From Gammaproteobacteria bacterium (lineage in GTDB: Bacteria > Pseudomonadota > Gammaproteobacteria > S144-34), in contig JALSJE010000073.1 in assembly GCA_026989495.1 (NCBI GenBank), forward strand, positions 1-61,591: a DNA stretch of 61,591 nucleotides, given 5' to 3'. Below, piece by piece: positions 44,289-61,591 of the stretch. The notes below the pieces were generated by a model. It saw only the letters and a list, made by a program, of their open reading frames with translations, was not told the DNA's origin and ran no database searches. Numbering within the stretch: position 1 is the first letter of the stretch; each line of letters begins with the position of its first letter. The position numbers and the translations under genes were made by a program.

Positions 44289-44375
44289 TCCGGCCGGAAA
44301 GGCGACAATGTGGCATCCGGGGCCGCGGTCCAGGCGGGGAACCTATACCCGCCGCGGGCATCTGAGGAGAACGGT

Positions 44376-45092: not shown

Positions 45093-45223
45093 GCCTACTG
45101 GACTTCCTCTCCATGGGGGGATATGGCGCCTACGTCTGGAGCGCCTATGCGCTGATGGTGGCGGTGCTGGCCTGGAACGTCGCGGCGCCGCTCGTCTGCC
45201 TGCGCCGCCGGAGGCGGCCATGA
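45089..45223 (+). CDS. ccmD: CcmD
   Basis: [12 protein letters not shown] with a basic tail. Confidence 0.9.
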
Positions 45224-45705
45224 GCGTGGCGCTGCCGCACATGCCCCGCGGAGCCCGCCGCCGCGCCATGGGCGTGCTGGCGCTGCTCGTCGGGGTGGGC
45301 GTTGCGGTCGCGCTCGCGCTGCTCGCCCTGCGGGAGAACATCAACCTTTTCTACAGCCCGAGCGAGGTGGCCGCGGGCGAGGCACCCACGGGCCGCGTGG
45401 TGCGCGTCGGCGGGCTCGTGCAGGCGGGAAGCGTGAGGCGTGCCGAGGAGGGGCTTGACGTGGAGTTCGTGCTCACCGACGGAGCGGCCACCGTGACGGT
45501 GCGCTACCGCGGGATCCTGCCCGATCTCTTCCGCGAGGGGCAGGGCATCGTCGCCCAGGGGCGGCTCGGGCCGGAGGGGGTGCTGGTCGCCGACCAGGTG
45601 CTCGCCAAGCACGACGAGAACTACATGCCGCCCGAGGTCGCCGACGCGCTGCGCGAGGCACATGAGCGCAGCGTGCGTGGCGCCGCCCCGGGAGGTGCGC
45701 CGTGA
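45220..45705 (+). CDS. ccmE: Heme chaperone CcmE
   Basis: [20 protein letters not shown]. Confidence 0.96.
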
Positions 45706-47675: not shown

Positions 47676-47721
47676 TGGGCGCCGATACGTGGCCTCACCG
47701 GTCGCCGAGGAGGCGGGTGCC

Positions 47722-48276
47722 GTGAGGTTGGGCCCGCACCTGCGCTACGGTCTGCCCCTGCTGGTCTTCGCCGCCCTGGCGGCGCTGCTCTGGCAGGGGC
47801 TCGGGCGCGACCCCAGGCTGGTTCCCTCTCCCCTGGTGGGCAAGCCCGCGCCTGCCTTCAGCCTCCCTTCCCTGCGCGAGCCATCGCGCGTGGTGGGCAC
47901 CGACGATCTCCGTGGCCGCGTGGCCCTGCTCAACGTGTGGGCGAGCTGGTGCACCGCCTGCCGTCAGGAGCATCCGCTGCTGATGCGTGTGGCGCGGGAG
48001 GAGAAGGTGCCCATCTATGGCCTCAACTACAAGGACCGCCGCGAGGATGCGCTGCGCTGGCTCGACGGGCTGGGCGACCCCTATGTGTGGAGCGCGCACG
48101 ATCTCGAGGGCAGGGTCGGCATCGACTGGGGTGTCTATGGGGTGCCGGAGACGTTCGTCATCGATCGGCGGGGCGTGATCCGCTACAAGCACATCGGCCC
48201 GATCGACGAGCGGGCCTGGCGCGAGCGCATCGCGCCCCTGCTGGCCGAGCTGCGCCGCGAGGAGGCCGCACCGTGA
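47722..48276 (+). CDS. ccmG: Thiol:disulfide oxidoreductase CcmG/DsbE
   Basis: WASWCTAC, GVYGVPETF. Confidence 0.95.
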   Translation: MRLGPHLRYGLPLLVFAALAALLWQGLGRDPRLVPSPLVGKPAPAFSLPSLREPSRVVGTDDLRGRVALLNVWASWCTACRQEHPLLMRVAREEKVPIYGLNYKDRREDALRWLDGLGDPYVWSAHDLEGRVGIDWGVYGVPETFVIDRRGVIRYKHIGPIDERAWRERIAPLLAELRREEAAP

Positions 48277-48770
48277 GACGGCCCCGGCGGGGAGCGGCGC
48301 TGGCGGCCGTGGCGCTCTTCTGGGCGGGGGCGCTGCCTGGGGCGATCGAGCCCCGAGACTTCCCCACCGCCGAGCAGGATGCGCTCTATCACGAGCTCAT
48401 AGAGGAGCTGCGCTGCCTGGTGTGCCAGAACCAGAACCTGGCCGAGTCGAACGCACCGCTCGCCAAGGACCTGCGTGACGAGATCGCCGCCATGGTGACG
48501 GCCGGCAAGGGCCGCGAGGAGGTGGTGGCGTTCCTGGTCGCGCGTTACGGTGACTTCGTCCTCTACCGCCCGCCGTTGCGGCCCGATACCTGGCTGCTGT
48601 GGGCAGGCCCCTTCGTCCTCCTGGTGGCCGGGATTGGCGCCCTGGCGCTGGTGCTGCGGCGCCGCTCGACCGCCGCCGGCGCTCCGGCGCCCGACCCGGG
48701 CAGCCTCGAGCGCGCGCGGGCGCTCCTGCGCGGGTCTGCGCCGGATACCACCGAAGGCGGGCCACGGTGA
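48273..48770 (+). CDS. ccmH: CcmH
   Basis: LRCLVCQNQ, RYGDFVLYRPP. Confidence 0.95.
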   Translation: MRRPRRGAALAAVALFWAGALPGAIEPRDFPTAEQDALYHELIEELRCLVCQNQNLAESNAPLAKDLRDEIAAMVTAGKGREEVVAFLVARYGDFVLYRPPLRPDTWLLWAGPFVLLVAGIGALALVLRRRSTAAGAPAPDPGSLERARALLRGSAPDTTEGGPR

Positions 48771-49660
48771 GCACCGCGGTCTTCTACGTTCTCGCCGCCG
48801 CGCTCGCGGCGGGGGCGGCGGCGACGGCCCTGGCTCCCCTCCTGCGGGCGCGGCACGGCGGGGCAGACCACCTGGACTCGCGGGCCCGGGCCCACCGCCG
48901 CCGGCTGGCCGAACTGGACGCCGAACACCGCGCCGGCCTGCTCTCGGCCCAGGACCATGCCGAGGCGAGGCGGGAAGTGGAAGCGGCGCTCGCGCGCGAG
49001 CTTGAGGCTGGCGAGGGCCCGGCACCATCCCGCCGGGGGCGGGCTGCCGCGGCAGCACTCGTCGCGGTCGCCCTCGCGGGAGGAATGGCTCTCTACGGCT
49101 GGCTGGGGCGTCCCGACCTCGCCGATCCCTCGCTCGCGGGACGCCTGCCGACGCCCGAGGCGCCGCCGCCCTCCGTCGAGGCCATGGTGGCACGGCTCGA
49201 GGCGCGGCTCAGAGAGCGACCCGAGGACGCGCAGGGCTGGATGATGCTCGGCCGCTCCTACCGGGTCCTGGGGCGGGCCGGAGATGCCGCGCGCGCCTAT
49301 GGCGAGGCCCTCCGGCGGGTGGAGGCCCCGTCTGCGGACCTGCTCGTGGCCTATGCAGAGGCACGCATCCTCGCGGCGGAGGGACAGGTGGACGGGCAGG
49401 CCGCCGGGGCGCTCTCCCGCGCCCTCACCCTGGAGCCGGATCACGCGCTGGGGCTGTGGCTCGACGGGCTCGCCGCCTTCCAGCGCGGCGACTACGCGCG
49501 AGCGCTCGCGCGCTGGGAGCGTGTGCTGAACACCGGCGGGGCTGCCGATCCCCGGGTGGAGTCCATGCTGCGCGAGCAGATCGCCGAGGCGCGCCGCCGC
49601 CTCGACGGCGCCGGCGCCTCATCGGCGCCGGCCGATGGCCAGCCCGAGCAGGAAAAGTAG
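48767..49660 (+). CDS. ccmI: CcmI/CycH TPR protein
   Basis: Two TM helices followed by TPR repeats (GWMMLGRSY, YAEA, A..RW). Confidence 0.9.
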   Translation: MSTAVFYVLAAALAAGAAATALAPLLRARHGGADHLDSRARAHRRRLAELDAEHRAGLLSAQDHAEARREVEAALARELEAGEGPAPSRRGRAAAAALVAVALAGGMALYGWLGRPDLADPSLAGRLPTPEAPPPSVEAMVARLEARLRERPEDAQGWMMLGRSYRVLGRAGDAARAYGEALRRVEAPSADLLVAYAEARILAAEGQVDGQAAGALSRALTLEPDHALGLWLDGLAAFQRGDYARALARWERVLNTGGAADPRVESMLREQIAEARRRLDGAGASSAPADGQPEQEK

Positions 49661-50404
49661 CTGCGCCCCGGTCCCGTGGGCGGTGGCGAGCGCCGCCGTG
49701 GGCACGGCGGTGGCCAGGAAGGCGCCCGTCGCAAGCTGGGCGGCCGCCGCCGCCGCAACCCCGGCGGCCAGGCCCGGACGGGCGGCGCGCAGGAGCCGCC
49801 ATGCCAGCATTCCGGCCGCGAGGGCGAGGCCCACCGCCACCGCCCGGTGGGCCAGATGGAGCGGGGCGGCGGGTCCCGCATCCGCGCCGCACAGAGGCAG
49901 CCCCGGGCAGTCGGCCACGGAGAAGCCCGCCGCGATCGTTCCCCCGTTCACGGCCGCGAGTCCCGCGAACGCGGCCACCAGCAGCCCGAGGCGCCGGACG
50001 CCGGGCTCCGGCGTCCCCGGCGCGGCGAGCCAGGCGAGGGCACCCGCCAGGGCCCAGCCGCCCAGCAGGTTAGCCAGCGTCACCGCATCGCGTGCCGCAT
50101 CGCCCGAGAGCGGCCCGATGAGCGCGAGCCCCGCCACGGCGCCGGCCGCCAGCGTGGCGGCGGCGCGCCCGTCGCGCGTGCGCCACGCCCGCACCAGCAG
50201 CCACGCCACCAGCACGAGGACGAGGAGGGCGAGCATGCGGTGGGCGGGGCGCAGCCCGGCAGGTATGGTGAAGACCGCTTCGCCGTAGCATGAGGGCCAC
50301 GGCTGGCAGCCCAGCCCCGAGCGCAGATGCCGCACGTATGCGCTCAGCGCACCCAGGACCACCGTCGCGGCCGCCGCCGCTGACGACCATTCTCTCAGCG
50401 ACAT
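49619..50404 (-). CDS. Atypical CtaA-like heme-modifying protein
   Basis: SGLGCQPWPSC, AHR, NLLGG (His replaced by Asn), CPGLPLC, AHR, AHG; divergent from the oxidase operon. Confidence 0.78.
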   Translation of the reverse strand: MSLREWSSAAAAATVVLGALSAYVRHLRSGLGCQPWPSCYGEAVFTIPAGLRPAHRMLALLVLVLVAWLLVRAWRTRDGRAAATLAAGAVAGLALIGPLSGDAARDAVTLANLLGGWALAGALAWLAAPGTPEPGVRRLGLLVAAFAGLAAVNGGTIAAGFSVADCPGLPLCGADAGPAAPLHLAHRAVAVGLALAAGMLAWRLLRAARPGLAAGVAAAAAAQLATGAFLATAVPTAALATAHGTGAQLLFLLGLAIGRRR

Positions 50405-50706
50405 GACGGCTCGGGACAGGGCGGGTGGCACCGAACGGCCCGCCGCCTGATGCCGGGCCGCCTGGGGGCTGCTCCTCTCCCGTCTCTCATCGCGTGCCGT
50501 GCGCGCGCGCCTCGCGGCTCCCCGGGGGCAGGGGTGAATCCCGACAGGCGGCCTCCTCCGGACCTGTGCCTTCTCCGAACACGACAGTGCAAGCCCTGCA
50601 GGGTGCGGCGGGCACGGCCGCCGGAGGGCCCCGCAACTGACATCGCGCAGAAGACGGCAGGTGCGGCCGCCGACTCCTGCGCGCCGCGGCATTGTGGCGC
50701 AATCAC

Positions 50707-50720
50707 TTGACCTCCATCAA
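50707..50720. promoter_or_regulatory. FNR box TTGACCTCCATCAA
   Basis: One mismatch to TTGAT-N4-ATCAA, ~100 bp upstream of the operon. Confidence 0.72.
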
Positions 50721-50820
50721 GGAGATGTCTGCGTCCGAAAACTAGAAAACCTGACATGATCCATCCGGAGGCGATGCACGATCGTGGATTCGGGGCCCTT
50801 ACAGAGAGAGGAGCGGAGCG

Positions 50821-51012
50821 ATGGCAGAGCACGAAGACCAGGCGCGCAAAGAGGAAGGGGGGTCGATGGATCAGTTTGGGGCCGACGTGCCCGTCATGCA
50901 GCGCATCCTCGACAGCCCATTCCTGCTCCTGTTCCTGGGAATCACGATCCCCACCGTCTTCTATCTCGTCTGGGGAATCATGGAGATCATCAGCATCCCG
51001 ATCGCGAAATGA
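50821..51012 (+). CDS. Small single-TM subunit (subunit IIa-like)
   Basis: VP.MQR.LD.PFLLLFLG...Y..WG..EI; first gene of the operon. Confidence 0.75.
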   Translation: MAEHEDQARKEEGGSMDQFGADVPVMQRILDSPFLLLFLGITIPTVFYLVWGIMEIISIPIAK

Positions 51013-51076
51013 GGGGATGGGACGGGGGTGACGCCGGCAAGCGGCCGCGGAACGACAACAACCACGAGGTACGGTC

Positions 51077-51613
51077 ATGAGCGCGATTCTACCGCCTGCA
51101 CAGCGGCTCTGGTGGAAGGAGCCGGTCGAGCGCATCGAGATCGTCTGGATCGTCCTGGCGTTCGTCTGGTGCCTGATCCTCACCTTCATGATGCCCTACT
51201 GGCACGTCTTCGGTAAGCAGAACCTCTCCAACGAGGCCTACCGCACGACGCCGCAGGCCTTCGCCGCGAAGGCGCAGGCCGTGGTCGACAAGTGGAAGGT
51301 GCGCGAGGTGGGCGGCGTGCCCGTGGTCAGGCCCCCCGCCGGTGCCGATATCTACCTCGTCGGGAGGCTGTGGCAGTGGTGGCCGGCCTACGAGCTCAAG
51401 AAAGGCGAGAGCTACCGTCTGCACCTGTCGTCGCTCGACTGGCAGCACGGCTTCTCTCTCCAGCCGGTCAATATCAACACGCAGGTGCTGCCGGGGTACG
51501 AGATGGTGATCACGATAACGCCGAACGAGGCGGGCGAATACACCATCGTCTGCAACGAGTACTGCGGTATCGGGCACCACAACATGCTCGGCAAGATCTT
51601 CGTGGTGGACTGA
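51077..51613 (+). CDS. Heme-copper oxidoreductase subunit II (CuA), B-family/eNOR type
   Basis: One TM helix, HGFS, CNEYCGIGHHNM. Confidence 0.92.
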   Translation: MSAILPPAQRLWWKEPVERIEIVWIVLAFVWCLILTFMMPYWHVFGKQNLSNEAYRTTPQAFAAKAQAVVDKWKVREVGGVPVVRPPAGADIYLVGRLWQWWPAYELKKGESYRLHLSSLDWQHGFSLQPVNINTQVLPGYEMVITITPNEAGEYTIVCNEYCGIGHHNMLGKIFVVD

Positions 51614-51626
51614 GGGGGGAGCAGCC

Positions 51627-53330
51627 ATGGCCGTCGATCGCACCTTCCGCATCTGCCCCCAGACGGGGCTCGCCTACCATCGGTCCGCCGAGCAGCTCAT
51701 GAAGGCCCATGCCGTCGCCGGCGTGGTGGCCCTGCTGGTGGGCGGTGTGCTCGCGCTGTTCGTGGCGCTCACCCGCTGGCCGGCCGTGCACATGCTGCCG
51801 GCGGACAGGTTCTACCAGGCGCTCACGGCGCACGGCATCGACATGCTGATCTTCTGGATCATCTTCTTCGAGATCGCCGTGCTCTACTTCACCTCCTCCA
51901 CCCTGCTGCGGGCCCGCCTGGCCTCGCCGCGCGTCGGGTGGGCCGGGTTCGCCCTTATGGTGATCGGCGCCTTGATCACCAACTGGGCCATTCTGCGCGG
52001 CAAATCCAGCGTGATGATGACCTCCTACGTGCCCATGCCGGCCGAGCCCAGCTTCTACCTGGGGCTCATCCTGTTCGCGGTGGGGGCGCTGATCGGCTGC
52101 TTCATCTTCCTCGCCACGCTGGTTATCGCGCGCTACGAGCGCACCTATGAAGGCTCCATCCCGCTGGTCACCTTCGGGGCGCTCACGGCCTGCATCATCG
52201 CCATCCTCACCATCGCCAACGGCGCCATCATCCTGATCCCCACCTGGCTGTGGTCGCTGGGATACATATCCAATATTGACCCCCTCATGTACCGCGTCGT
52301 GTGGTGGGCCTTGGGGCATCCTTCTCAGCAGATCAACGTCTCGGCCCATGTGGCAGTGTGGTACGCCATCGCGGCCATCGTCTTCGGCGCCAAGCCCATG
52401 TCGGAGAAGGTCAGCCGGATGGCCTTCCTGCTCTACATTCTGTTCCTGCAGCTCGCCTCGGCCCACCATCTGCTCGTCGACCCCGGGGTGAGCGCGGAAT
52501 GGAAGATGTTCAACACCAGCTACGCCATGTATCTGGCGGTGCTGGCGAGCATGATCCACGGGCTGACGGTCCCGGGCTCGATCGAGGTGGCCCAGCGGCG
52601 CAAGGGCTACACCAAGGGCCTGTTCGAGTGGCTGCGCAAGGCGCCGTGGGGCAACCCCGTCTTCTCGGGGATGTTCATCTCGCTGGTGGTGTTCGGTTTC
52701 CTCGGGGGTATCTCCGGGGTGGTGATGGGTACCGAGCAGATCAACATCATCATCCACAACACCATCTACGTGCCCGGTCACTTCCATGCCACCGTGGCCA
52801 CCGGCACCACGCTCGCCTTCATGGCGCTCACCTACTTCCTCATCCCCACGCTGTTCCGGCGTGAGCTCATCATGCAGGGCCTTGCCAAGTGGCAGCCCTA
52901 CATCTTCGGCATCAGCATGGCGGTGCTGTCGCTGTTCATGATGGGCGCAGGCACGCTGGGCGTGGCCCGCAGGCACTGGGACATGGCATTCGCCGGCAAC
53001 CCACTCGGCTTCGAGTATCCCACCACCGCCTATCTGATGATGGGTCTGGTGGGGATCGCGGGCGTCGGCGCGGTGATCGGCGGCGCGGCCTATATCCTTA
53101 TTACGGTGGGATCGATCCTCTTCGGGCGGAAGCTCCCCGCCGGCGAGATCACCACGCAGCCGGAGCCGGTGCGCGCCCCCGTATCCGAGGCCTTGGAGGG
53201 CCATGGCGGCGGGGTGGGTGTGCTGGAGGCGCGCGGCACCTTCGCGCTGGCCATGCTCCTGCTCGTGAGCTTCGTGATCTACTACTTCATCAACTGGAAG
53301 TACCTGGCCTCGGTCTGGGGCCTGAGCTGA
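51627..53330 (+). CDS. Heme-copper oxidoreductase subunit I, eNOR-type nitric oxide reductase
   Basis: All six His present (TAHG, GHPSQQIN, AHH, GHFH); Gln sits at the position of the cross-linked Tyr of HPxVY. Confidence 0.85.
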   Translation: MAVDRTFRICPQTGLAYHRSAEQLMKAHAVAGVVALLVGGVLALFVALTRWPAVHMLPADRFYQALTAHGIDMLIFWIIFFEIAVLYFTSSTLLRARLASPRVGWAGFALMVIGALITNWAILRGKSSVMMTSYVPMPAEPSFYLGLILFAVGALIGCFIFLATLVIARYERTYEGSIPLVTFGALTACIIAILTIANGAIILIPTWLWSLGYISNIDPLMYRVVWWALGHPSQQINVSAHVAVWYAIAAIVFGAKPMSEKVSRMAFLLYILFLQLASAHHLLVDPGVSAEWKMFNTSYAMYLAVLASMIHGLTVPGSIEVAQRRKGYTKGLFEWLRKAPWGNPVFSGMFISLVVFGFLGGISGVVMGTEQINIIIHNTIYVPGHFHATVATGTTLAFMALTYFLIPTLFRRELIMQGLAKWQPYIFGISMAVLSLFMMGAGTLGVARRHWDMAFAGNPLGFEYPTTAYLMMGLVGIAGVGAVIGGAAYILITVGSILFGRKLPAGEITTQPEPVRAPVSEALEGHGGGVGVLEARGTFALAMLLLVSFVIYYFINWKYLASVWGLS

Positions 53331-53339
53331 GCGAGGCGC

Positions 53340-53368
53340 GAGGCGGCGGGGCCCGGCCCCGCCGCCTC
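53340..53368. terminator. Hairpin after subunit I
   Basis: GAGGCGGCGGGGCC-C-GGCCCCGCCGCCTC. Confidence 0.5.
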
Positions 53369-53384
53369 ATGCCGGGGGGCCTCC

Positions 53385-54296
53385 ATGCGGGCGGGATCGG
53401 CGGCACGGGTGCAGGCGGAAGCAGATGCGGGCAGGCTGCAGGCCTTCCTCGGCCTCTGGAAGCCCCGCATCGGAATGGCCATCGGCTTCACCGGGGTCAC
53501 GGGCTACGCGCTGGCCGCCGGTCCCGCCTTCGATCCCGTGCTCGCCGCCTGGCTGTTTGCGGGGATGATGCTCGCGGCGGGAGGTGCCGGCGCCTTCAAC
53601 CAGTATGTGGAGCGCGACCTGGACGCGCGCATGCGCCGCACGCGCTCGCGTCCCTTCGTCACGGGCGAGTTCCGTGCCGGACCGCACTGGCTCATGGCCA
53701 TCGCGCTCGTCACGGGCACCGGGGTGGCGCTCACCGCCTGGCGCGCAGGCCCGTGGGCCGCCGTGGGGACGGCGCTCGGCACGCTCGTCTACGCGGTGGT
53801 CTACACCCTGTGGCTCAAGCGGCGCACGCATTGGAACATCGTGATCGGGGGGCTGGCGGGGAGCCTGGCCCTGCTCGCGGGCGCGGGGGCCGTCTCGGGC
53901 CAGGCCATGGGTGCGCCGCTGGTGGTGGCCTTCGCCGTGGTCCTGTTCCTCTGGACCCCCTCGCACTTCTGGAGCCTCGCCATCGCCCTGCGCAGCGACT
54001 ACGAGGCGGCGGACGTGCCCATGCTGCCGGCGGTGGCCGGCCCGCGGCATACCGCGCGTGTGGTGCTCGCCAACACGGTGGTCCTGGTGGCGGCCAGCTT
54101 CGTCCCGGCCGCCCTGGGGCTCGGCCCCGTCTACGGTCTGGTGGCCGCGGGCGCCGGGGCACTGTTCCTCTGGCACAATCTGCGCCAGGTGCGCGCACCC
54201 ACGCCCGCGTCCGGGCGCGCCAACTTCCGCGTCTCTCTCGTGCATCTCGCCCTGCTGCTGGGGGCGGCCACGCTCGCCGCCACCGGTATCTGGTAG
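53385..54296 (+). CDS. ctaB: Heme O synthase (protoheme IX farnesyltransferase)
   Basis: KPRI, NQYVERDLDARMRRTRSRP, YTLWLKRRT, WTPSHFW, VPMLP. Confidence 0.94.
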   Translation: MRAGSAARVQAEADAGRLQAFLGLWKPRIGMAIGFTGVTGYALAAGPAFDPVLAAWLFAGMMLAAGGAGAFNQYVERDLDARMRRTRSRPFVTGEFRAGPHWLMAIALVTGTGVALTAWRAGPWAAVGTALGTLVYAVVYTLWLKRRTHWNIVIGGLAGSLALLAGAGAVSGQAMGAPLVVAFAVVLFLWTPSHFWSLAIALRSDYEAADVPMLPAVAGPRHTARVVLANTVVLVAASFVPAALGLGPVYGLVAAGAGALFLWHNLRQVRAPTPASGRANFRVSLVHLALLLGAATLAATGIW

Positions 54297-54307
54297 GCGG
54301 ATCCGCC

Positions 54308-55081
54308 ATGCGTGCGCTGGCGACGCTCCTGCTCGCGGCCGTGGCGCTGCCGGCGGCGGCGCTCGACCCCGAGCGCGCGCTGGCCGTGAGCCAGGCCGCC
54401 ATCGGCCGGCAGGTCTCCGACCACGTGCTCGTGCGCGCCGACGGCACCACGCTGCGGCTCTCGGAGCTCGCCGGCGTGCCCCTCGTGGTGAGCCTGGTCT
54501 ACACCGGCTGCTACCGGATCTGCCCCACCACCACGCGGCATCTGCTGCGGATGGCGCGGCTTGCGCGCAAGGCCCTGGGGCCCGGGCGCTTCAAGGTGCT
54601 GGTGATCGGCTTCGACACCGCACAGGACACCCCCGAGGCCATGCAGGTCTACGCGCGCAAGCAGGGCGCGGCAGGCGAGCCGGACTGGCTCTTCCTGAGC
54701 GCCGACGCCCGCACCGCCCGGGCGCTCGCCCGCGAGCTGGGCTTCGTCTATGAGCCCTCCCCGCGCGGATTCGACCACCTGCTCCAGGTGAGCGTGCTCG
54801 ACGGCGAGCGCCGCGTCTACCGCCAGGTCTACGGCGACGCCTTCACGGCGCCCCAGCTCGTCGAGCCCCTCAAGGAGCTGGCCCTGGGCCGGCGTGCGGA
54901 CAAGGGCCTGCTCGCCCACCTCGCGGATCGCGTGCGGCTCTTCTGCACCACCTACGACCCGTCCACGGGGGCGTACCGCTTCGACTACTCGCTCTTCATC
55001 GGCCTCACCATCGCGGCCCTCATCCTCCTGTCCACGCTGGCCTTCCTCGTGCACGAGCTGCGCCGCCGGGGCGCTTCTTGA
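54308..55081 (+). CDS. SCO1/SenC copper chaperone with C-terminal TM helix
   Basis: YTGCYRICP, FDH, YG..F, FC..YDP..G.Y. Confidence 0.9.
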   Translation: MRALATLLLAAVALPAAALDPERALAVSQAAIGRQVSDHVLVRADGTTLRLSELAGVPLVVSLVYTGCYRICPTTTRHLLRMARLARKALGPGRFKVLVIGFDTAQDTPEAMQVYARKQGAAGEPDWLFLSADARTARALARELGFVYEPSPRGFDHLLQVSVLDGERRVYRQVYGDAFTAPQLVEPLKELALGRRADKGLLAHLADRVRLFCTTYDPSTGAYRFDYSLFIGLTIAALILLSTLAFLVHELRRRGAS

Positions 55082-55091
55082 CCCGGATCAT
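55078..55091. promoter_or_regulatory. FNR-like box TTGACCCGGATCAT
   Basis: Overlaps the SCO stop codon, upstream of the cytochrome b fusion. Confidence 0.4.
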
Positions 55092-55524
55092 GGTTGGGCC
55101 GCTCACGCGGGCCCTAGCATCATCGGTATGAGATCCATCCCGTGCGCACCCCCATCCGGAACCGTGGCGGCCGCCGCAGGTGCGGCGCGGTTGCGGACGC
55201 GCGGGATGGGGTGCGGGCGGCGATGCGGTCTGCGCGGGACGCGAGGACCGACGCTCGCGCTCGGCGCCGGGCCGCGCTGCCTGCGACTGGCCTTCGCGCC
55301 GCTGCGCGGCGCTTCGGCCCCGTGTCCGCGCGGCCGTCCCCGGCCGGCGACGCCCGCGCATCCCGCCTCCCCACACGCACGGGGGAGGGTGTGGGGGTGA
55401 GCGAGGCGCGCCGCAGCGCCCTCAGGTGGGGGGATCTGATTCTGTCGTCGCGCTCGAACCCCATCCGCCTGCGGTGGAATCCGGCAGGGAGGGCAGCGCC
55501 GACGCGGGGCGAGGAGGAGGGCAG

Positions 55525-57099
55525 GTGCAGGCGCTGCTGAGGCTGCTGCGGCGGGGATTCGAGCCCCTGGAGGCGGTCGGCTACCGCCTCTTCGGCGGCG
55601 AGAGCCCCTTCCACCATCTGGGCGCGCTCACCATCTACCTGTTCTGGATCGTGCTGGTGAGCGGCATCTACGTCTTCGCCTTCTACCACACGAGCGTCGC
55701 GGGGGCCTACGAGTCGGTCCAGCGCCTGACCGAGGAGCAGTGGTGGCTGGGCGGGGTCATGCGCAGCCTCCACCGCTACGCCTCGGATGCGGCCGTGCTC
55801 ACCCTGGGGCTGCACATCTTCCGCGAACTCTCGCGTGACCACCACCGCGGGCCGCGCTGGTTCTCCTGGATCACCGGGGTGCCCAACCTGTGGATGGTCT
55901 ACATGCTGGGCATCACGGGCTACTGGATGGTGTGGGACGAGCTCGCCCAGTACATCGCCGTCGCCACCGCCGAGCTCCTCGACTGGCTGCCCATCTTCAC
56001 CGACCCCATGGCGCGCAACTTCCTCACGGAGGGCAGCCTGGGCGACCGCTTCTTCACCCTGCTCGCCTTCCTGCACCTGCTGGGCCTGCCCCTCATTCTG
56101 GTGGGCACCGTCTGGCTCCACATCCAGCGCATCAGCCGCCCGCGCATCAACCCGCCGAGGCGGCTGGCGCTGGGGACCCTGCTGGCCCTGCTCGCGCTTT
56201 CCTTCGTGCAGCCGGCGTCGAGCCACGCTCCGGCAGACCTCACGCGCGCGCCCCAGGTGCTCAGCCTCGACTGGTTCTACCTCGCCATCTATCCGCTCTA
56301 CGACCTGTTCGGTGCTGCGGTGGTGTGGGGGGTGCTGTGGGGCGGGACGCTGCTGCTGTGCGCGCTGCCGTGGCTGCCGCCGCGGCGGCGCGAGTCCGTG
56401 GCCGAGGTGGATCCGGCCTGGTGCAACGGCTGCCGGCGCTGCTTCGGCGACTGCCCCTATGGCGCCATCGAGATGGCGCCCCATCCCGACAAGCGCGGCA
56501 AGGAGATCTCGGTGGTCGACCCTGCCCTGTGCGTGAGCTGCGGGATCTGCGAGGGGGCCTGTCCCTCGGCCACCCCCTTCCGCAGCGTGCGAGAGCTGGT
56601 GAGCGGCATCGAGCTGCCCCAGTACCCGGTGCAGGTGCTGCGCGAGCGCGCGCGCGCTGCGGCCCGGCGCCTGAGCGGGCCGGTGCGCATCGTGGTTTTC
56701 GGGTGCCGGCATGCGGCCGACCCCGCGCAGGTGACGGGGCCGGACACCGCCTCGGTCCCTCTGGTGTGCGCAGGGATGCTGCCGCCTTCCCTCGTCGAGT
56801 ACCTCATCCGCCGCGAGGGCGTGGACGGGGTGGTGATCTCCGGCTGCCGCGCCGGGGACTGCGAGTACCGTCTCGGCACGCGCTGGGTCGAGGAGCGGCT
56901 GGCGGGCACGCGCGAGCCGCATCTGCGGCGCAACGTGCCGCGCGAGCGCATCGCCGTGTGCTGGAGCGGCCCAGACGCGGCCATGCTGCGTGCGTGCGTG
57001 GACGGGCTGCGCGCGCGGCTGGCCGCGCGGTCGCGCGCGGACGAGGCCGGCGGCGGGGCGCGTCCACCCGCGGCGGCGGCCGGAGGCGGCCATGGCTGA
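55525..57099 (+). CDS. Cytochrome b(6)-like / 2x[4Fe-4S] ferredoxin / MvhD-like fusion protein
   Basis: RSLHRY..LHIFR and FLH..WLH (four heme His); CNGCRRCFGDCP, CVSCGICEGACP; FGC..CAG..SGCRAGDC. GAGGAGGAGG RBS, GTG start. Confidence 0.88.
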   Translation: MQALLRLLRRGFEPLEAVGYRLFGGESPFHHLGALTIYLFWIVLVSGIYVFAFYHTSVAGAYESVQRLTEEQWWLGGVMRSLHRYASDAAVLTLGLHIFRELSRDHHRGPRWFSWITGVPNLWMVYMLGITGYWMVWDELAQYIAVATAELLDWLPIFTDPMARNFLTEGSLGDRFFTLLAFLHLLGLPLILVGTVWLHIQRISRPRINPPRRLALGTLLALLALSFVQPASSHAPADLTRAPQVLSLDWFYLAIYPLYDLFGAAVVWGVLWGGTLLLCALPWLPPRRRESVAEVDPAWCNGCRRCFGDCPYGAIEMAPHPDKRGKEISVVDPALCVSCGICEGACPSATPFRSVRELVSGIELPQYPVQVLRERARAAARRLSGPVRIVVFGCRHAADPAQVTGPDTASVPLVCAGMLPPSLVEYLIRREGVDGVVISGCRAGDCEYRLGTRWVEERLAGTREPHLRRNVPRERIAVCWSGPDAAMLRACVDGLRARLAARSRADEAGGGARPPAAAAGGGHG

Positions 57100-57598
57100 G
57101 CGCGCTGCGGCGCGGATGCTCGGGCAGGCGCTGGCCTATGCGGCATTCGCCGCTTTCGTGGGCCTTTTCGCCGTGCGCCCGGCCTGGACCCGCCTCCCGC
57201 CGGATACCGCCGAGCTCAAGGTGAGCATCGTGCACCGCGGCCAGCCCGTGGGCGAGTGCCGTGAGCGCACCGAGGAGGAGCTCGCGCGCCTGCCGCCCAA
57301 CATGCGCATCCGCGTGGTGTGTCCGCGCGAGCGGTCGCCGCTCGAGCTCGAGATCTACCTCGACGGGCGGCTGCTGCACCGTGAGATCAAGGCTCCCAGC
57401 GGGCTCCGGCACGACGGGCCGGCCTACATTTACCACCGCTTCGCCGTGCCGGCAGGGGAGCACATCGTGCGAGTCCGCCTGCGCGACAGCGTGCGCGTGG
57501 AAGGATATCCCTACGAGCGCGAGGAGCGGGTGCGGCTCGACCCCGGACGCTCGCTCGCTGTGGATTTCGATCCCCTCCAGGGTATCCGGTTCCGCTGA
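57092..57598 (+). CDS. Membrane-anchored periplasmic hypothetical protein
   Basis: Overlaps the upstream stop; N-terminal TM, H..C..NMR..CPRER, beta-rich domain. Confidence 0.8.
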   Translation: MAERAAARMLGQALAYAAFAAFVGLFAVRPAWTRLPPDTAELKVSIVHRGQPVGECRERTEEELARLPPNMRIRVVCPRERSPLELEIYLDGRLLHREIKAPSGLRHDGPAYIYHRFAVPAGEHIVRVRLRDSVRVEGYPYEREERVRLDPGRSLAVDFDPLQGIRFR

Positions 57599-57607
57599 GG
57601 TGCACAG

Positions 57608-59020
57608 ATGGAGGAGGTGAGCGGCATATTGCGGACGGGGGAGCGCGTGCCCGCGCGCACGCGTGTCGTGCAGGCCTACGCGCTGCCGGTGCCCGCGGGC
57701 GTGGCCGCAGCGCTCGCGCGCGGCTGGCTCCGGCTGGGTGTGGGGGCGCTGCTGCTGTCGGGGCTCTTCTCCGTCCTCATCGTGCTGTCCCGCGCCCCGG
57801 GCGTGGCCGAGCGCCTGCCGTGGACCAACCTCTTCCACACGGCGCTGGTCGTGCATGTGGACCTGTCGGTGCTGGTGTGGTTCCTGGCCTTCGCGGGCGT
57901 GCTCTGGAGCCTGCACGGGGCCGAGCGTGCGCCCGCGCTCGGACGTACGGCGCTTGCACTGTCCACTGTCGGCACGGGGGTGATGGCCGCCGCCCCCTTC
58001 CTGGGCGCGGACCGGCCGCTCATGAGCAACTACATCCCGGTGCTGGACCATCCCCTGTTCCTGGCGGGGCTGCTCCTCTTCGGCGCGGGCTGCCTCGTGC
58101 AGCTCGCGCGCGCGCTGACGCTGGCTCCACCCGTGGGGCCTGCCATCACGGGTGAGGGTGCGCTGCGCTTCGGCATCAACACGGCCTCGGTAGCGGCGGG
58201 CATGGCCGTGCTGGCCTTCGCCTGGTCCTGGCTGCTGCTGCCGGAATTTCTTGCCGGCAAGGAGCGTTACGAGCAGCTCTTCTGGGGCGGCGGGCACGTG
58301 CTGCAGTACGTGCACACCCAGCTCATGCTGGTGGCCTGGCTGTGGCTCGCCCAGCAGGCGGGCCTGCGCCTCGCGCTCACGCCCCGGGTGGTGGTGGTGC
58401 TGTTCGCCTGGGGGCTGGTCACCGTCTTCCTCACCCCGCTCATCTATCTCGCCTTCGAATTCGGCTCGGTCCCGCACCTGCGGGCCTTCACCTGGATGAT
58501 GGCCTTCGGCGGAAGCCTCGCCGCCGCCCCCATCGGGCTCGCCGTGCTGGTGGGGCTGGCCCGGGCCGGCCCTGCCACGGGCGATGGGTCCGTCGCGCGC
58601 AGCGGGCTTGCGGCCTCGCTGCTGCTCTTCGGAGTGGGCGGGCTGCTCGGCTTCGCCATCGAGGGCGGAGACGTGCGCGTGCCGGCCCATTACCACGGGA
58701 GCATCGTCGGCATCACCCTCGCCTTCATGGCGCTCGCCTACCTGCTCATGCCGTGCCTGGGGCTCGGCCGGCCGCCGGTGCGGCTGGCGCGCTGGCAGCT
58801 GCGCCTCTACGCCGGCGGGCAGCTCCTGCACGTGCTGGGGCTGGCCTGGTCCGGCGGCTACGGCGTGCCGCGCAAGACGCCCGGCGCCGCCCAGGGGCTC
58901 GACACGCTGCCCGAGATCCTCGGCATGGCGGTGATGGGCGTGGGCGGGCTGCTCGCCATCGTCGGCGGCATGCTCTTCGTGGTCGCGGCGGGCATGGCCC
59001 TGGCGCGTCACACGAATTGA
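57608..59020 (+). CDS. Degenerate heme-copper oxidase subunit-I-like membrane protein
   Basis: About 12 TM helices; VHVD, FWGGGHVLQY, PAHYHG, G..G.PRK; no HH pair in helix VII. Confidence 0.78.
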   Translation: MEEVSGILRTGERVPARTRVVQAYALPVPAGVAAALARGWLRLGVGALLLSGLFSVLIVLSRAPGVAERLPWTNLFHTALVVHVDLSVLVWFLAFAGVLWSLHGAERAPALGRTALALSTVGTGVMAAAPFLGADRPLMSNYIPVLDHPLFLAGLLLFGAGCLVQLARALTLAPPVGPAITGEGALRFGINTASVAAGMAVLAFAWSWLLLPEFLAGKERYEQLFWGGGHVLQYVHTQLMLVAWLWLAQQAGLRLALTPRVVVVLFAWGLVTVFLTPLIYLAFEFGSVPHLRAFTWMMAFGGSLAAAPIGLAVLVGLARAGPATGDGSVARSGLAASLLLFGVGGLLGFAIEGGDVRVPAHYHGSIVGITLAFMALAYLLMPCLGLGRPPVRLARWQLRLYAGGQLLHVLGLAWSGGYGVPRKTPGAAQGLDTLPEILGMAVMGVGGLLAIVGGMLFVVAAGMALARHTN

Positions 59021-59030
59021 TCCAGATCAA
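59017..59030. promoter_or_regulatory. Perfect FNR box TTGATCCAGATCAA
   Basis: Exact consensus, ~60 bp upstream of the fnr-like gene. Confidence 0.8.
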
Positions 59031-59090
59031 TACTGGCGGTGGGGGTGGCCCGCATGCTGGGCCGCACGGGACTGTTTTCTGCGCAGGATC

Positions 59091-59849
59091 ATGCCCCGGC
59101 CCACGCGAGCCACCGCGAGCGGAGACGCCGGCACCACGCTGCGTTGCCGGCGCTGCTGCTTCGGCCCCCTGTGCCTGCCGGGCGGTGTCCAGCCCGCCGA
59201 GGTCGCGCTGCTGGACGGCGTGGTGGAGGCGCGACGCACCCTCGCCGCAGGCGAGGTCCTGGTGCAGGCGGATGCCCCTTTCCGCGCCCTCTACGCCGTG
59301 CGCTCCGGCTCGCTCAAGTCGCAGGTCCGCTGCGGCGAGCGCGTCCAGGTGCTGGCGTTCCATTTTCCGGGCGAGCTCGCCGGGTGGGATGGCATCGGCC
59401 ATGGGCGCCACCGCGTCGAGGTGGTGGCCCTGGAGCCGTCCTCGGTGTGCTTGATCCGCTATCACCGCCTGATGGGGCTCGCCGACCGCATCCCGCGCCT
59501 CTACCGCCGCCTTCTGGCGCTGATGGCGGGCGCCACACAGTGCGACTGGACCGTGGCCGTGGCCGGGCCGGGTGGTGACGCCGAGCAGCGCGTGCTCGCT
59601 TTCCTGCTCAACCTGGCCGAGCGCCGGCTGGCGGCGGGGCTCGCGGTGGACGAGGTGCGCCTCGGCATGTCGCGCGACGACATCGCCAGCTACCTCGGCC
59701 TGGCCCCGGAGACGGTCAGCCGCGCCATGGTGCGCGTGAGCCGCAGCGGTCTGGTGCGCATCCACCGCCGGCGGGTGCGCTTCGGCGACCTCGAAGCTCT
59801 GCGCGCCGCCGTCCTCTCCGGGTGCCCGGAGCTCGCCGCCGCCGAATGA
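59091..59849 (+). CDS. Fnr-family regulator 1
   Basis: CRRCCFGPLC, SVC, FHFPGEL.G.DG, MSR.DIASYLGL..ETVSR. Confidence 0.9.
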   Translation: MPRPTRATASGDAGTTLRCRRCCFGPLCLPGGVQPAEVALLDGVVEARRTLAAGEVLVQADAPFRALYAVRSGSLKSQVRCGERVQVLAFHFPGELAGWDGIGHGRHRVEVVALEPSSVCLIRYHRLMGLADRIPRLYRRLLALMAGATQCDWTVAVAGPGGDAEQRVLAFLLNLAERRLAAGLAVDEVRLGMSRDDIASYLGLAPETVSRAMVRVSRSGLVRIHRRRVRFGDLEALRAAVLSGCPELAAAE

Positions 59850-60160
59850 CGGCGGTGGGAGGGTGGACAAGGCCCTATGCCGGCGATGGCCGTCAAGCGG
59901 TGCCCCTGGGATTTCGGCAAGGGCAAGCTGGCGTCGGGCAGATATCGCAGGACCCTGCGCTGCTTGCCGCCGCAGCCACCCGTTCTCGCGCACCCGCAGG
60001 CAGGCGCCGTTGAGCACACGTGCCTGCCAGGCACGCCCCGCCGCGCCGCGGACATCCAGTCACGCCAACATGCGACGGCCGTCTGGCAGGTAGTGCCGCT
60101 GGCAGGGCCGTTTGACCAGCCCTGAGGCGCTTCGTGTTCCATCCCGAGGTTTCGTTTATC

Positions 60161-60261
60161 TTCATGCGCAGGGAAGTGCATGACGACACGCGGATAGTCG
60201 AAATGGACCGCGAAGCTCCATTGCGCCGATTGATCCGCGCAGCGGATTGATCAGAGCTTCC
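60161..60261 (+). repeat. Dispersed multi-hairpin repeat, copy E (3' part)
   Basis: CATGCGCAGGGAAGTGCATGACGAC..TTGATCCGCGCAGCGGATTGATCAGAGCTTCC. Confidence 0.88.
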
Positions 60262-60480
60262 AATTGATCTCGGTCATTTATCCGGGTGCGGCGTGCGCCT
60301 AGGGTTGGACACGGGGCGCCGCGTCCCTACGGCCGTCTCCTCGGCGCGGACCAGCATGGCATGGCTCCTCGGAGCCGAGCCGGGGAGGGGTGTTCTGGAA
60401 GTCGGCGGCCGGCCGCGCTCCCCGCGACTGAGCGCTGCGCGTTCCCGTGTCCGCGCGGCCGGCGCAGGAGACCGCGATCC

Positions 60481-61266
60481 ATGAACGAGTCCAGCAACGT
60501 GACGCCGCTGCTGACGCCGGCCAACCGCCGGCGCTTCCCGCCCTACTGCCCGCCGGTCGAGTGCACCGCGTGCACACTGCTCGCGCTGTGCCGCATGGCG
60601 GGGCTGGGTGTGGACGAGCGGCGTCTGGCCGACACGGTGGGGCGGCGCCGGCCCGTGGCCCGCGGCGCCGAGGTGCGCCCGCGCCGGGTGCGCTCGGTGG
60701 TGGCAGTCCGCTCCGGGGCCCTCAAGAGCGAGATGCTGCGGCCCGGGGGCGAGCCCCAGATCGTGGCCTTCCACCTGCCGGGGGAGCTGGTCTCGCTGCC
60801 GGCGGCGGACGAGGCCGGCGAGCCCGAGCTGCGCACGGTGGCGCTGATGCCCTCGGAGGTGTGCGAGCTGCCGGTGCAGGAGCTCCACGGCTTCGACGCC
60901 GAGGAGTCCGCCCGTTTTCATCTGCGCCTGGCCCAGGAGGCCACAGGGGCGCTGCTGGCCGCCCAGCGGACGCTCGCCTGGACCCGCAGCGAGGGTGCCG
61001 AGGCGCGGCTTGCCGGCTTCCTCCTCGACATCGCCGCACGCTTCGCCAGCCGTGACCTGCCGGCGCAGGCCTTCCGGCTGCCCATGCCGCGGCGCGACAT
61101 CGCCAACTTCCTCGGGCTGGCGGAGGAGACGGTCTGCCGCCTGTTCCGGCGCTTCCACGGCCGCGGCTGGATCGCCGTCAGCGGCAAGCGCATCGTCATA
61201 CGCGACCCCTCCAGGCTGCGGGCGGTGGCCGCCGGCGCAGCCCCGCGCGAGGGCGACAGGGGCTGA
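60481..61266 (+). CDS. Fnr-family regulator 2
   Basis: CTACTLLALC, EVC, FHLPGEL, MPR.DIANFLGL..ETVCR. Confidence 0.88.
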   Translation: MNESSNVTPLLTPANRRRFPPYCPPVECTACTLLALCRMAGLGVDERRLADTVGRRRPVARGAEVRPRRVRSVVAVRSGALKSEMLRPGGEPQIVAFHLPGELVSLPAADEAGEPELRTVALMPSEVCELPVQELHGFDAEESARFHLRLAQEATGALLAAQRTLAWTRSEGAEARLAGFLLDIAARFASRDLPAQAFRLPMPRRDIANFLGLAEETVCRLFRRFHGRGWIAVSGKRIVIRDPSRLRAVAAGAAPREGDRG

Positions 61267-61275
61267 GGACGGGCG

Positions 61276-61591
61276 TCAGTCGCCCACCACCCGCACGGTC
61301 CCCCGCATCTCTTCATGGGGGCCGCAGCGATACGTGTAGCGTCCGGGCCGCTCGAAGCGGCGTTCGTAGCTCTCTCCGGGAAAGAAGTACTCCGGCTCGG
61401 GCTCACCCGACTCCTCGAACCAGACGCTGTGATACTGGCGCCGTTCCCGGTTGATCCAGCGGACGGTTGTTCCAGGTCTGATCACGATCTCCGCGGGCTC
61501 GAAGGCGTAACGCCGTATCTCCACGATCACGACGTCGCCGTGACCGTCACCGGCTGCCCCAGCCCACGCTGGTGTCGATGCCCATCCGAGC
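61276..61591 (-). CDS. Cupredoxin (plastocyanin/amicyanin-like), 5' end outside the window
   Basis: F.PAEI.I.PGTTV.W.N..HSV..YRCGPHEEM type-1 Cu site. Confidence 0.88.
   Translation of the reverse strand, partial: LGWASTPAWAGAAGDGHGDVVIVEIRRYAFEPAEIVIRPGTTVRWINRERRQYHSVWFEESGEPEPEYFFPGESYERRFERPGRYTYRCGPHEEMRGTVRVVGD

Follow-up and report, generated by a model that had tools for sequence, protein, structure and literature searches.

The DNA analyzed here, hereafter the window, is the whole of contig JALSJE010000073.1 (C73; 61,591 nucleotides, 61.6 kb) of a gammaproteobacterial genome (GCA_026989495.1; 2.54 Mb in 143 contigs, approximately 72% G+C, 99.98% complete). Its right-hand part carries a gene cluster for a haem-copper oxidase (HCO) homologue whose sequence features support its assignment to the eNOR-type nitric oxide (NO) reductases (NORs). 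Genes of this type are routinely mis-annotated as cytochrome c oxidase. The genes for the enzyme are followed by three genes in the same orientation, which encode a fusion of cytochrome b with ferredoxin and MvhD-like domains, a 168-amino-acid protein with a membrane helix, and a second homologue of the catalytic subunit I that we call HCO2. We are highly confident that these three trailing genes are conserved accessory genes and not a second reductase. Because spurious open reading frames are abundant at about 72% G+C, the gene calls were based on third-position G+C together with family matches.

The catalytic subunit I is encoded at 51627-53330 (+; 567 amino acids; Pfam COX1, 1.7e-68). A first-pass annotation of the stretch had noted that this protein keeps all six metal-binding histidines and carries an unusual GHPSQQIN motif, and both points are borne out. 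The ligands are H69, H231, H280/H281 and H385/H387, all six being invariant in 30 sequences, and the helix VI region reads WWALGHPSQQINVSAH, which contains GHPSQQIN. In the HMMER alignment 'ghpsqqi' lies opposite 'ghpvvyf' of the B-family oxidase 7deg_A, and the second Gln, Gln235, is thus placed at the position of the cross-link Tyr. Q occupies this column also in the cluster representatives P0130, P0134 and P0138. Related subunit I genes that cover the motif all read GHSSQQ[IV]N (50/50, with GHSSQQIN in 48 and GHSSQQVN in two), and the GHPSQQIN of the window is distinguished by its P. The closest solved structures are B-family oxidases (4e-51 to 1e-47), the A family reaching only 1e-7, and no NOR structure was among the matches at 1e-3. 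The polar residues T297, S298, Y299, S308, H311 and T314, candidates for a K-channel-like path, are also invariant in the 30 eNOR I sequences. Directly upstream, subunit II (51077-51613, +) matches Cupredoxin_1 and COX2, both just under the Pfam cut-offs, and presents the complete CuA pattern that had been claimed for it: H124 and C159-N-E-Y-C163-G-I-G-H167-H-N-M170.

In Murali et al. 2024 (PMC11214002), eNOR from Rhodothermus marinus is characterized as an enzyme that reduces NO without reducing O2. Recognition of the family relies on a Gln at the Tyr position, a subunit I related to the B family and a subunit II with CuA, as stated in PMC8756737 (citing Hemp & Gennis 2008) and PMC11214002. 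All three features are found in the window, on which grounds we assign the enzyme to eNOR, in agreement with the first-pass annotation. The likeness extends to the three binuclear-centre and three haem histidines, to the position of the CuA subunit gene immediately upstream of a subunit I closest to the B family, and to an operon with a CtaA homologue, a haem O synthase and a low-oxygen context.

For a phylogenetic comparison, 1.84 billion cluster representatives were searched, and 27 of the 150 matches listed (those of at least 440 amino acids) were kept. By helix VI motif they comprise three Gln-Gln, four Gln-Tyr, 14 HPxVY and three odd His-Tyr sequences, and three others, namely one HCO2 relative, one with a divergent motif and P0144, which is garbled in the motif region. 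The tree (IQ-TREE quick run, LG+G4, 39 rows, P0144 left out) carries support values from the Shimodaira-Hasegawa-like approximate likelihood ratio test (SH-aLRT) only; it also included the genome's two A-type and two cbb3 subunits, the HCO2 of the window, six HCO2 relatives and P0125, a second HCO2 copy of this genome. The subunit I of the window belongs to a Gln-Gln clade of four members (support 99, references unnamed and grouped by motif), which groups with the Gln-Tyr sequences (94). Gln-Gln, Gln-Tyr and odd sequences together with HCO2 form one clade (99) that is separate from the HPxVY group and also from the A-type and cbb3 sequences. The references being unnamed representatives grouped by motif, none of them a named bNOR, sNOR, gNOR, nNOR, cNOR, qNOR or Rhodothermus sequence, membership in the eNOR clade is supported, not proven; the absence of the characterized Rhodothermus enzyme from the tree weighs against a firmer assignment.

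Two other groups were noted in this tree. The four Gln-Tyr proteins (P0136, P0141, P0143 and P0155) are full-length subunit I homologues that read GHTxQYxN, with Tyr and the His pair both retained. Being 36-45% identical, these proteins are nearer to eNOR than the classical B-family oxidases are, and HCO2 has a GHxLQ[YF] pattern in common with them. In the odd group (P0199, P0203 and P0218), helix VI contains FHV[NY]HY, the His pair is replaced by Y-H, and helix X has Y-x-H where H-x-H would be expected. This group, the sister of the eNOR-related clade, possibly corresponds to one of the other proposed NOR families.

A small gene overlooked by the first-pass annotation directly precedes subunit II and encodes a 63-amino-acid single-helix membrane protein (50821-51012, +). 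The Pfam search gave no match for it. To place it and the other genes in context, we used the best 80 of 599 matched stretches as related loci, taken from one genome per species and recruited by the HCO2 family, and counted genes in them by tblastn with the window proteins. Homologues of the 63-amino-acid protein lie immediately before subunit II in 45 of these 80 loci, and the protein is possibly a small eNOR subunit. An open reading frame on the opposite strand (50395-51189, -) has no family match and is read as spurious since it runs antisense to this gene and to the start of subunit II. Subunit I is followed by the haem O synthase gene ctaB (53385-54296, +; UbiA, 2.8e-49), of which a second copy is present on contig C8, and by a gene for a SCO1/SenC copper chaperone (54311-55081, +, the exact start being approximate; PF02630, 4.1e-10; CYRIC motif).

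The first of the trailing genes (55525-57099, +; 524 amino acids) encodes a cytochrome b of the b6 plus subunit-IV-like kind, continued by a 2x[4Fe-4S] ferredoxin and an MvhD/FlpD-like domain, as recognized by Pfam and NCBIfam matches. GTG 55525 is most likely its start, rather than 55180, because GGAGGAGG precedes it and homologue alignments begin there. Like cytochrome b of the b6f (b6 plus subunit IV) and bc1 complexes, the protein has four haem-b histidines in two pairs (H83/H97 and H184/H199; 13 and 14 intervening residues, respectively) and, after helix E, a D-W-F-Y segment resembling PEWY, which is a quinol-site motif. The four His and D249-W250 of this LDWFY segment are invariant in 41 sequences. 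So are 12 Cys, in two CxxCxxCxxxC clusters and four in the MvhD-like domain. Unlike Rieske/cytochrome b complexes, the fusion has no Rieske or cytochrome c1/f partner, and family searches of the cluster found no gene for a Rieske protein or a c-type cytochrome. It differs from them also in its six helices, read from the sequence, and in a C-terminus that would extend into cytoplasmic 2x[4Fe-4S] and MvhD-like domains. The N-terminus of the cytochrome b fold is inside. With six helices, and all 12 Cys after the sixth, the Fe-S clusters are inferred to lie in the cytoplasm, on the side opposite to CuA. Comparison with ExtP/ExtQ-type b cytochromes (NF040969 and NF040970) gave 1e-28 for ExtP, all scores being far below the curated cut-offs. 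Two related clusters contain a second cytochrome b that is fused to reductase modules: Flavodoxin, FAD_binding_1 and NAD_binding_1 in one (L145:672-3212, -), and Fer2, FAD_binding_6 and NAD_binding_1 in the other (L013:5378-7318, +). The window has no such cytochrome b-NAD(P)H reductase gene.

Another conceivable function is energy coupling. In a Qo-type bifurcation, one quinol electron could go to eNOR, with its very high potential, and the b haems could carry the other to the cytoplasmic Fe-S chain, from where the sister fusions would pass it on to NAD(P)+. Reverse electron flow of this kind would provide autotrophs with low-potential reductant. A bioRxiv preprint on Ferrigenium straubiae (10.64898/2026.01.22.701106) proposes such a supply of reductant for its cytochrome b-FeS-FAD-NADH protein. 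The Qo-like motif, the NAD(P)-binding sister fusions and the many hosts named as sulfur- or iron-oxidizer lineages (Sulfuricaulis, Thiogranum, Acidiferrobacteraceae, Thiohalobacter and Sedimenticola) would agree with it. However, the fusion of the window has neither a flavin nor an NAD(P) domain, and no Rieske-like high-potential one-electron acceptor was found in the cluster. The module is also present in Quisquiliibacterium, Ramlibacter, Rhizobacter and Halioglobus, which we take to be heterotrophs and count against such coupling, as we do the fact that oxygenase-type reductase modules normally pass electrons from NAD(P)H to an acceptor. We thus regard this explanation as unlikely.

The second trailing gene (57092-57598, +) overlaps the end of the cytochrome b gene, stop codon included, by 8 nucleotides and encodes 168 amino acids with an N-terminal membrane helix and a beta-sandwich. 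The gene is real, but what had been called a periplasmic protein is membrane-anchored rather than soluble. The AlphaFold2 model consists of one helix and a beta-sandwich (predicted local distance difference test 95). Pfam and NCBIfam searches gave no family match, and Foldseek gave no match in the PDB at E<=0.001, the best being generic beta-sandwiches with template modelling (TM) scores <0.45. In the ESM Atlas only 'hypothetical protein' clusters were recovered, with one weak lead, FlpD on 33% of members, which fits the natural fusions of this protein with cytochrome b: the two genes form a single open frame in L029, L040 and G229 (697 amino acids). As the beta-sandwich is fused after the cytoplasmic MvhD domain in these relatives, it is predicted to be periplasmic. 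Conservation is complete at C56 and C77 and nearly so at H48 and H124. The protein has no twin-arginine motif, Rieske motif or cupredoxin match. A Rieske-like or cupredoxin-like carrier was considered and rejected, the Cys/His spacing, the absent Tat motif and the fold search being unsupportive. A complex prediction for the trio (membrane part of cytochrome b, 168-amino-acid protein and HCO2) scored 0.00 and, having been run without controls, speaks neither for nor against binding.

HCO2 is encoded by the third gene (57608-59020, +; 470 amino acids; COX1, 1.7e-10). Alignment with eNOR subunit I by hhalign gave a probability of 99.6 (E 2.5e-24, 27% identity), and the model adopts the subunit I fold (predicted TM score 0.86; TM 0.6-0.71 in Foldseek comparisons with subunit I of the A, B and C families). 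HCO2 retains the haem ligands (eNOR I/HCO2: H69/H83, H385/H361 and H387/H363), the propionate partners (R448-R449/R422-K423), the first His of the binuclear centre (H231/H230) and the Gln preceding the Tyr position (Q234/Q233); H83, H361, H363, R422/K423 and H230/Q233 are invariant in the HCO2 family. In contrast, the eNOR pair H280-H281 is opposite I/Y, no HH pair occurs in 18 HCO2 sequences, and H230 alone remains of the three CuB/FeB histidines. The residue at the Tyr position is F or Y, and the polar helix VIII residues invariant in eNOR are lost. With the His pair and these polar residues gone, HCO2 is, on its sequence, a derived paralogue that is non-catalytic in the usual sense. The family is monophyletic and sits on a long branch inside the eNOR-related clade. 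It is large, with 6136 of 8000 scored candidates at E<=1e-3 and a relative encoded in 588 of the 599 matched stretches (one genome per species), and its members are approximately 55-60% identical across beta- and gammaproteobacterial lineages. The family profile had no match among PDB sequences at E<=0.01. P0125 is 42% identical to HCO2 over the full length (HMMER-based; BLASTP aligned only 76 residues) and is encoded directly after an A-type CoxI, next to nos genes. In the tree it groups with the HCO2 of the window on a very long branch, and an orthologue was found only in a genome of the same genus.

HCO2 could still be imagined as an enzyme in itself, acting on NO, O2 or haem at an open high-spin site, with the 168-amino-acid protein as a degenerate 'subunit II' and cytochrome b as electron input. 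The order of a one-helix beta-sandwich protein followed by a 12-helix HCO homologue does mimic that of subunits II and I. Moreover, H361, which is the ligand of the high-spin haem, never varies, nor do H230/Q233, and the strong conservation across orders would suit a catalyst. Against this stand the loss of two of the three binuclear-centre His and of the channel residues, the lack of a cupredoxin match for the 168-amino-acid protein, and the several genomes in which the two genes are apart. Together these points make an enzymatic role very improbable. Replacement of Surf1, a known haem a chaperone, was rejected as a function of HCO2: this genome has Surf1, as do three of the four other HCO2 genomes checked.

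The description of the cluster as FNR-linked is well founded, and the three FNR-like boxes first reported become four, of unequal quality. Two are strong. Box 1 (50707-50720, TTGACCTCCATCAA) lies approximately 107 nucleotides before the first gene of the eNOR operon, and box 3 (59017-59030), a perfect TTGATCCAGATCAA, precedes the first of two fnr genes. These are the only TTGA-N6-TCAA sites of the window (0.09 expected by chance; two sites in 0/100 shuffles). The other two have two mismatches each: box 2 (55078-55091, TTGACCCGGATCAT) overlaps the stop codon of the SCO gene, and box 4 (60264-60277, TTGATCTCGGTCAT) belongs to a run of TTGAT half-sites before the second fnr gene. Across the related loci we counted boxes with at most one mismatch to TTGAT-N4-ATCAA within approximately 260 nucleotides upstream of a gene. 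The 63-amino-acid gene is preceded by such a box in 25 of 45 loci, and the cytochrome b gene is in 20 of 59, versus 12 of 395 random windows; for the other six genes the numbers are at background, 0 to 3 loci each (41 to 74 examined). All 14 bases of box 2 are kept in the nearest relative (L001), approximately 80 nucleotides before its cytochrome b start. Box 2 is probably a promoter element of the trailing unit. Because boxes recur upstream of both the 63-amino-acid gene and the cytochrome b gene, we infer that the cluster is organized in two FNR-type low-oxygen transcription units, the first of which would comprise the genes for the 63-amino-acid protein, subunits II and I, CtaB and SCO, and the second the three trailing genes.

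Between box 2 and the cytochrome b start, the window (55092-55524) has approximately 350 extra G+C-rich bases. They are absent in L001, where the gap is approximately 90 nucleotides. A palindrome-like segment, CCCCACAC...GTGTGGGG, is located inside this stretch near 55360-55400. An inserted repeat or a structured leader might account for the extra bases.

The cofactor genes attributed to the cluster are clear for CtaB and SCO and weaker for the CtaA-like protein. The latter (49622-50404, -; 261 amino acids from ATG 50404) is encoded divergently from the eNOR operon, and its COX15-CtaA match (8.6e-12, 45 bits for a cut-off of 29.9) comes in three short pieces; NCBIfam gave no match. Homologues are present in 39 of the 80 loci. 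A genome search with this protein matched 7 of 301 genomes, all weakly except its own, and since the protein is too divergent its co-occurrence count was dropped. A canonical haem A synthase CtaA (41725-42684, -; PF02628, 9.1e-110, 366 bits; NCBIfam 3.1e-86, below the curated cut-off) is located outside the span first described, approximately 7 kb from the eNOR cluster, with a ccm operon between, and the canonical type occurs in 21 of the 80 loci.

The expectation that the trailing genes co-occur with eNOR is supported. In 57 loci the sequence upstream of HCO2 extends over 7 kb or more. Of these, 46 encode eNOR I (identity of at least 55%) upstream on the same strand and 3 elsewhere in the locus; the cytochrome b fusion and the 168-amino-acid gene stand directly before HCO2 in 42 of those 46. 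The remaining 8 loci have no eNOR I, and in five of these genomes it is found elsewhere (71-75% identity). One proteobacterial metagenome-assembled genome (MAG) and two Nitrospirae MAGs have none, so that the association at genome level is 54/57. In the two Nitrospirae MAGs (L020 and L051) HCO2 relatives of 47-49% identity lie directly after a CtaB-like gene, and the eNOR I query has no match.

We also searched 300 genomes drawn evenly from the class, using the same sample for eNOR I (E<=1e-60), the cytochrome b fusion (E<=1e-30) and HCO2 (query P0125, E<=1e-8). eNOR I was detected in 16 genomes. The cytochrome b fusion was detected in 17, namely all 16 eNOR genomes and one 80%-complete genome. 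HCO2 was detected in 24, of which 14 belong to the 16 with eNOR and 10 do not; in two of these 10 the matches are weak. The trailing genes are thus no indivisible unit. The two eNOR genomes in which HCO2 was not detected are 99% complete, and a search with the family profile was negative there as well, so that HCO2 is dispensable for eNOR. Among the ten genomes that have HCO2 but not eNOR, the surroundings of HCO2 vary: it is adjoined by A-type cox, Surf1 or CtaB genes in three (L131, L136 and L138), and no query gene is nearby in four (L130, L132, L133 and L134). HCO2 follows a 168-amino-acid gene in L137, from a 73%-complete genome, and the contig is too short in L135 and L139.

Split clusters show two patterns. 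In the first, the genes from eNOR to SCO stay together with cytochrome b, with or without the 168-amino-acid gene, and HCO2 is found with a CtaA-like gene (L016, L023 and L044; G001, G002, G009 and G010). In the second, eNOR to SCO stand alone, and the 168-amino-acid, cytochrome b and HCO2 genes are elsewhere (G006). A CtaA-like gene directly adjoins HCO2 in 16 of the 80 loci. In G229 the order is cytochrome b-168-amino-acid fusion, CtaA (1.2e-108) and HCO2, approximately 13 kb from eNOR, and in G042, which has no HCO2, CtaA comes after the 168-amino-acid gene. As judged from this distribution, the trio behaves as two modules, cytochrome b/168-amino-acid protein, tied to eNOR, and HCO2, tied to haem-a genes.

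The strict association of the cytochrome b fusion with eNOR, in 16/16 and 16/17 genomes, bears directly on a dedicated electron supply, the function first suggested for the trailing genes. Cytochrome b would oxidize quinol or take cytoplasmic reductant, and the electrons would pass via the 168-amino-acid protein and/or HCO2 to the CuA of eNOR, bypassing bc1 and cytochrome c. Consistent with this are the four invariant haem-b histidines and the D-W of LDWFY, the shared FNR-box regulation, the cytochrome b/168-amino-acid fusion in three relatives, and the fact that cytochrome b, with or without the 168-amino-acid protein, remains with eNOR in 5 of 7 split clusters (L103, L104, L106, L108 and L109). 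Nevertheless, the Fe-S domains would be cytoplasmic and CuA is on the other side. The trio has no Rieske protein, c-type haem or copper motif, and the 168-amino-acid protein has no recognizable cofactor site, twin-arginine signal or PDB fold match. Nor does a two-haem HCO2 devoid of the metal site, which also occurs without eNOR, have an obvious role as a relay. Purified eNOR is active with N,N,N',N'-tetramethyl-p-phenylenediamine (TMPD)/ascorbate, and the main text of PMC11214002 names no such partners. Dedicated electron supply therefore seems to us a possible but doubtful function.

We tentatively favour, over electron supply, that the trailing genes serve maturation of the haem A cofactor. 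In such a scheme the cytochrome b-ferredoxin-MvhD protein and its anchored partner would form an electron wire across the membrane, linking the quinone pool with a cytoplasmic Fe-S chain. This wire would bring electrons to CtaA or the CtaA-like protein for the synthesis of haem A or As when oxygen is scarce, and HCO2, predicted to bind two haems, would be a haem a acceptor or an assembly scaffold for haem-a enzymes. The cofactor-biogenesis character of the remaining cluster and the location of HCO2 next to CtaA-like and haem-a oxidase genes suggest such a function, as does the CtaA inside or after the trio in G229 and G042. By analogy, the cytochrome b-NAD(P)H reductase fusions of the oxygenase type in L145 and L013 would also point to it.

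The literature provides some parallels for maturation. Haem As occupies both sites of eNOR, and a CtaA homologue is encoded in many eNOR operons, according to PMC11214002. The question of how haem A is made at scarce oxygen is raised in the Ferrigenium preprint (10.64898/2026.01.22.701106). In yeast, Cox15 requires the ferredoxin Yah1 and its reductase Arh1, as reported in PMC7140478, and the proposed wire might be the bacterial counterpart of the ferredoxin and ferredoxin reductase that serve mitochondrial Cox15. The analogy, which is our own, would lie in a haem A synthase gene alongside an Fe-S carrier that ends in an N-side [2Fe-2S]-type domain, and in the NAD(P)H-flavin reductase modules found in the partner of the sister clusters. 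Unlike Yah1, a soluble adrenodoxin, the carrier here would be a membrane cytochrome b fusion.

Several observations weigh against maturation. The cytochrome b fusion is eNOR-specific in the sample (16/16 and one other of 300 genomes), although haem A is required by the much commoner aa3 oxidases as well; a dedicated eNOR donor predicts this pattern more directly. D249-W250 of LDWFY and the four invariant His suggest a quinol-oxidation site like that of respiratory bc complexes. HCO2 is missing from 2 of 16 eNOR genomes, and the presence of Surf1 alongside HCO2 makes the latter no simple replacement. A more elaborate version of maturation, which we put forward as a speculative possibility, is a haem A/As factory in which the fusion, its anchored partner, CtaA or the CtaA-like protein and HCO2 work together at low oxygen. 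The fusion and its partner would then be the missing electron donor of bacterial haem A synthase, and HCO2 a scaffold for haem a hand-over or a haem-modifying enzyme that, as CtaA, holds one cofactor haem and one substrate haem.

The trailing genes are not entirely new, which qualifies their earlier description as unexplained and uncharacterized. In the Ferrigenium preprint (10.64898/2026.01.22.701106), the eNOR operon of F. straubiae begins with eNOR II and eNOR I, continues with haem o synthase and sco1, and further contains an 'eNOR scaffold protein' and two genes for cytochrome b-[Fe-S] fusions. This is the same gene set and order as in the window, with a cytochrome b-[Fe-S] protein in both; the 'scaffold protein' most likely belongs to the HCO2 family, as judged from its operon position and not by sequence. 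The cytochrome b-FeS-FAD-NADH gene highlighted there is absent from the window. There the cytochrome b genes are described as unusual; in our sample, by contrast, 16 of 16 eNOR genomes have the fusion. In the full-text literature, supplements (which possibly hold operon tables) apart, no description of the trio was found beyond this preprint. The enzyme of the window is thus a further member of the eNOR family, with accessory genes already described in that preprint. New here are the split at genome level between an eNOR-specific cytochrome b module and HCO2, whose links are to haem-a genes, the recurrence of a second FNR box, the natural cytochrome b/168-amino-acid fusions, the CtaA embedded in the trio of some genomes, and the placement of HCO2 inside the eNOR-related clade.

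The genome carries genes for a cd1-type nitrite reductase (nirS, 1.6e-114) and nosR-nosZ-nosD, and nirK had no match above the cut-off. Five further COX1 matches in it were identified as two ccoN, two A-type oxidases and one HCO2 paralogue, with no cNOR or qNOR among them, which leaves eNOR as the sole haem-copper NOR candidate of the genome. Between nirS and nosZ, it is thus the only candidate NO reductase. According to PMC11214002, eNORs are among the commoner sources of microbial N2O. Conservation of the helper genes extends over hundreds of species genomes, and their function bears on how eNOR is provided with haem A under nearly anoxic conditions. It also bears on whether NO reduction is wired to quinol or to cytoplasmic reductant, and hence on energy conservation in denitrifiers. 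The split between cytochrome b with eNOR and HCO2 with haem-a genes gives concrete predictions for knock-out mutants. Elsewhere in this genome, a second operon (C53:3190-15974; L082, L087 and L110) has the order COX3, SCO, CoxII, A-type CoxI and P0125; a gene for a cytochrome c and then nosR-nosZ-nosD come next. The A-type CoxI keeps the Tyr and is below the CtaD cut-off.

The two Fnr genes and the cupredoxin noted by the first-pass annotation are located at the end of the contig. Regulator 1 (59091-59849, +) has cNMP_binding and HTH_Crp_2 domains and the Cys cluster CRRCCFGPLC. The start of regulator 2 (60481-61266, +) was moved to ATG 60481; it has an HTH_Crp_2 domain (5.3e-19) and a Cys-rich N-terminus. 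Both thus have FNR-type N-terminal Cys clusters, and Fnr is the best NCBIfam match of both (1.1e-45 and 3.1e-37, respectively), below the curated cut-off. The small blue-copper protein (61276-61590, -) has lost its N-terminus at the contig end; it shows YHSV ... YRCGPHEEM, and its matches to the models for plastocyanin and amicyanin (1e-10) fall short of the respective cut-offs. On the other side of the cluster, the ccm operon (44310-49660) comprises ccmC, ccmE, ccmF, a redoxin-type ccmG and a gene for a ccmI/CycH tetratricopeptide repeat protein, whose frame overlaps the 3' end of the convergent CtaA-like gene by approximately 40 nucleotides. Further away, a 411-amino-acid frame matches the propeller of cd1 nitrite reductase (33571-34128, -; 2e-8) and a 698-amino-acid frame matches copper nitrite reductase (21416-21766, +; 7.5e-9, below cut-off). 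These weak matches suggest further redox genes elsewhere on the contig.

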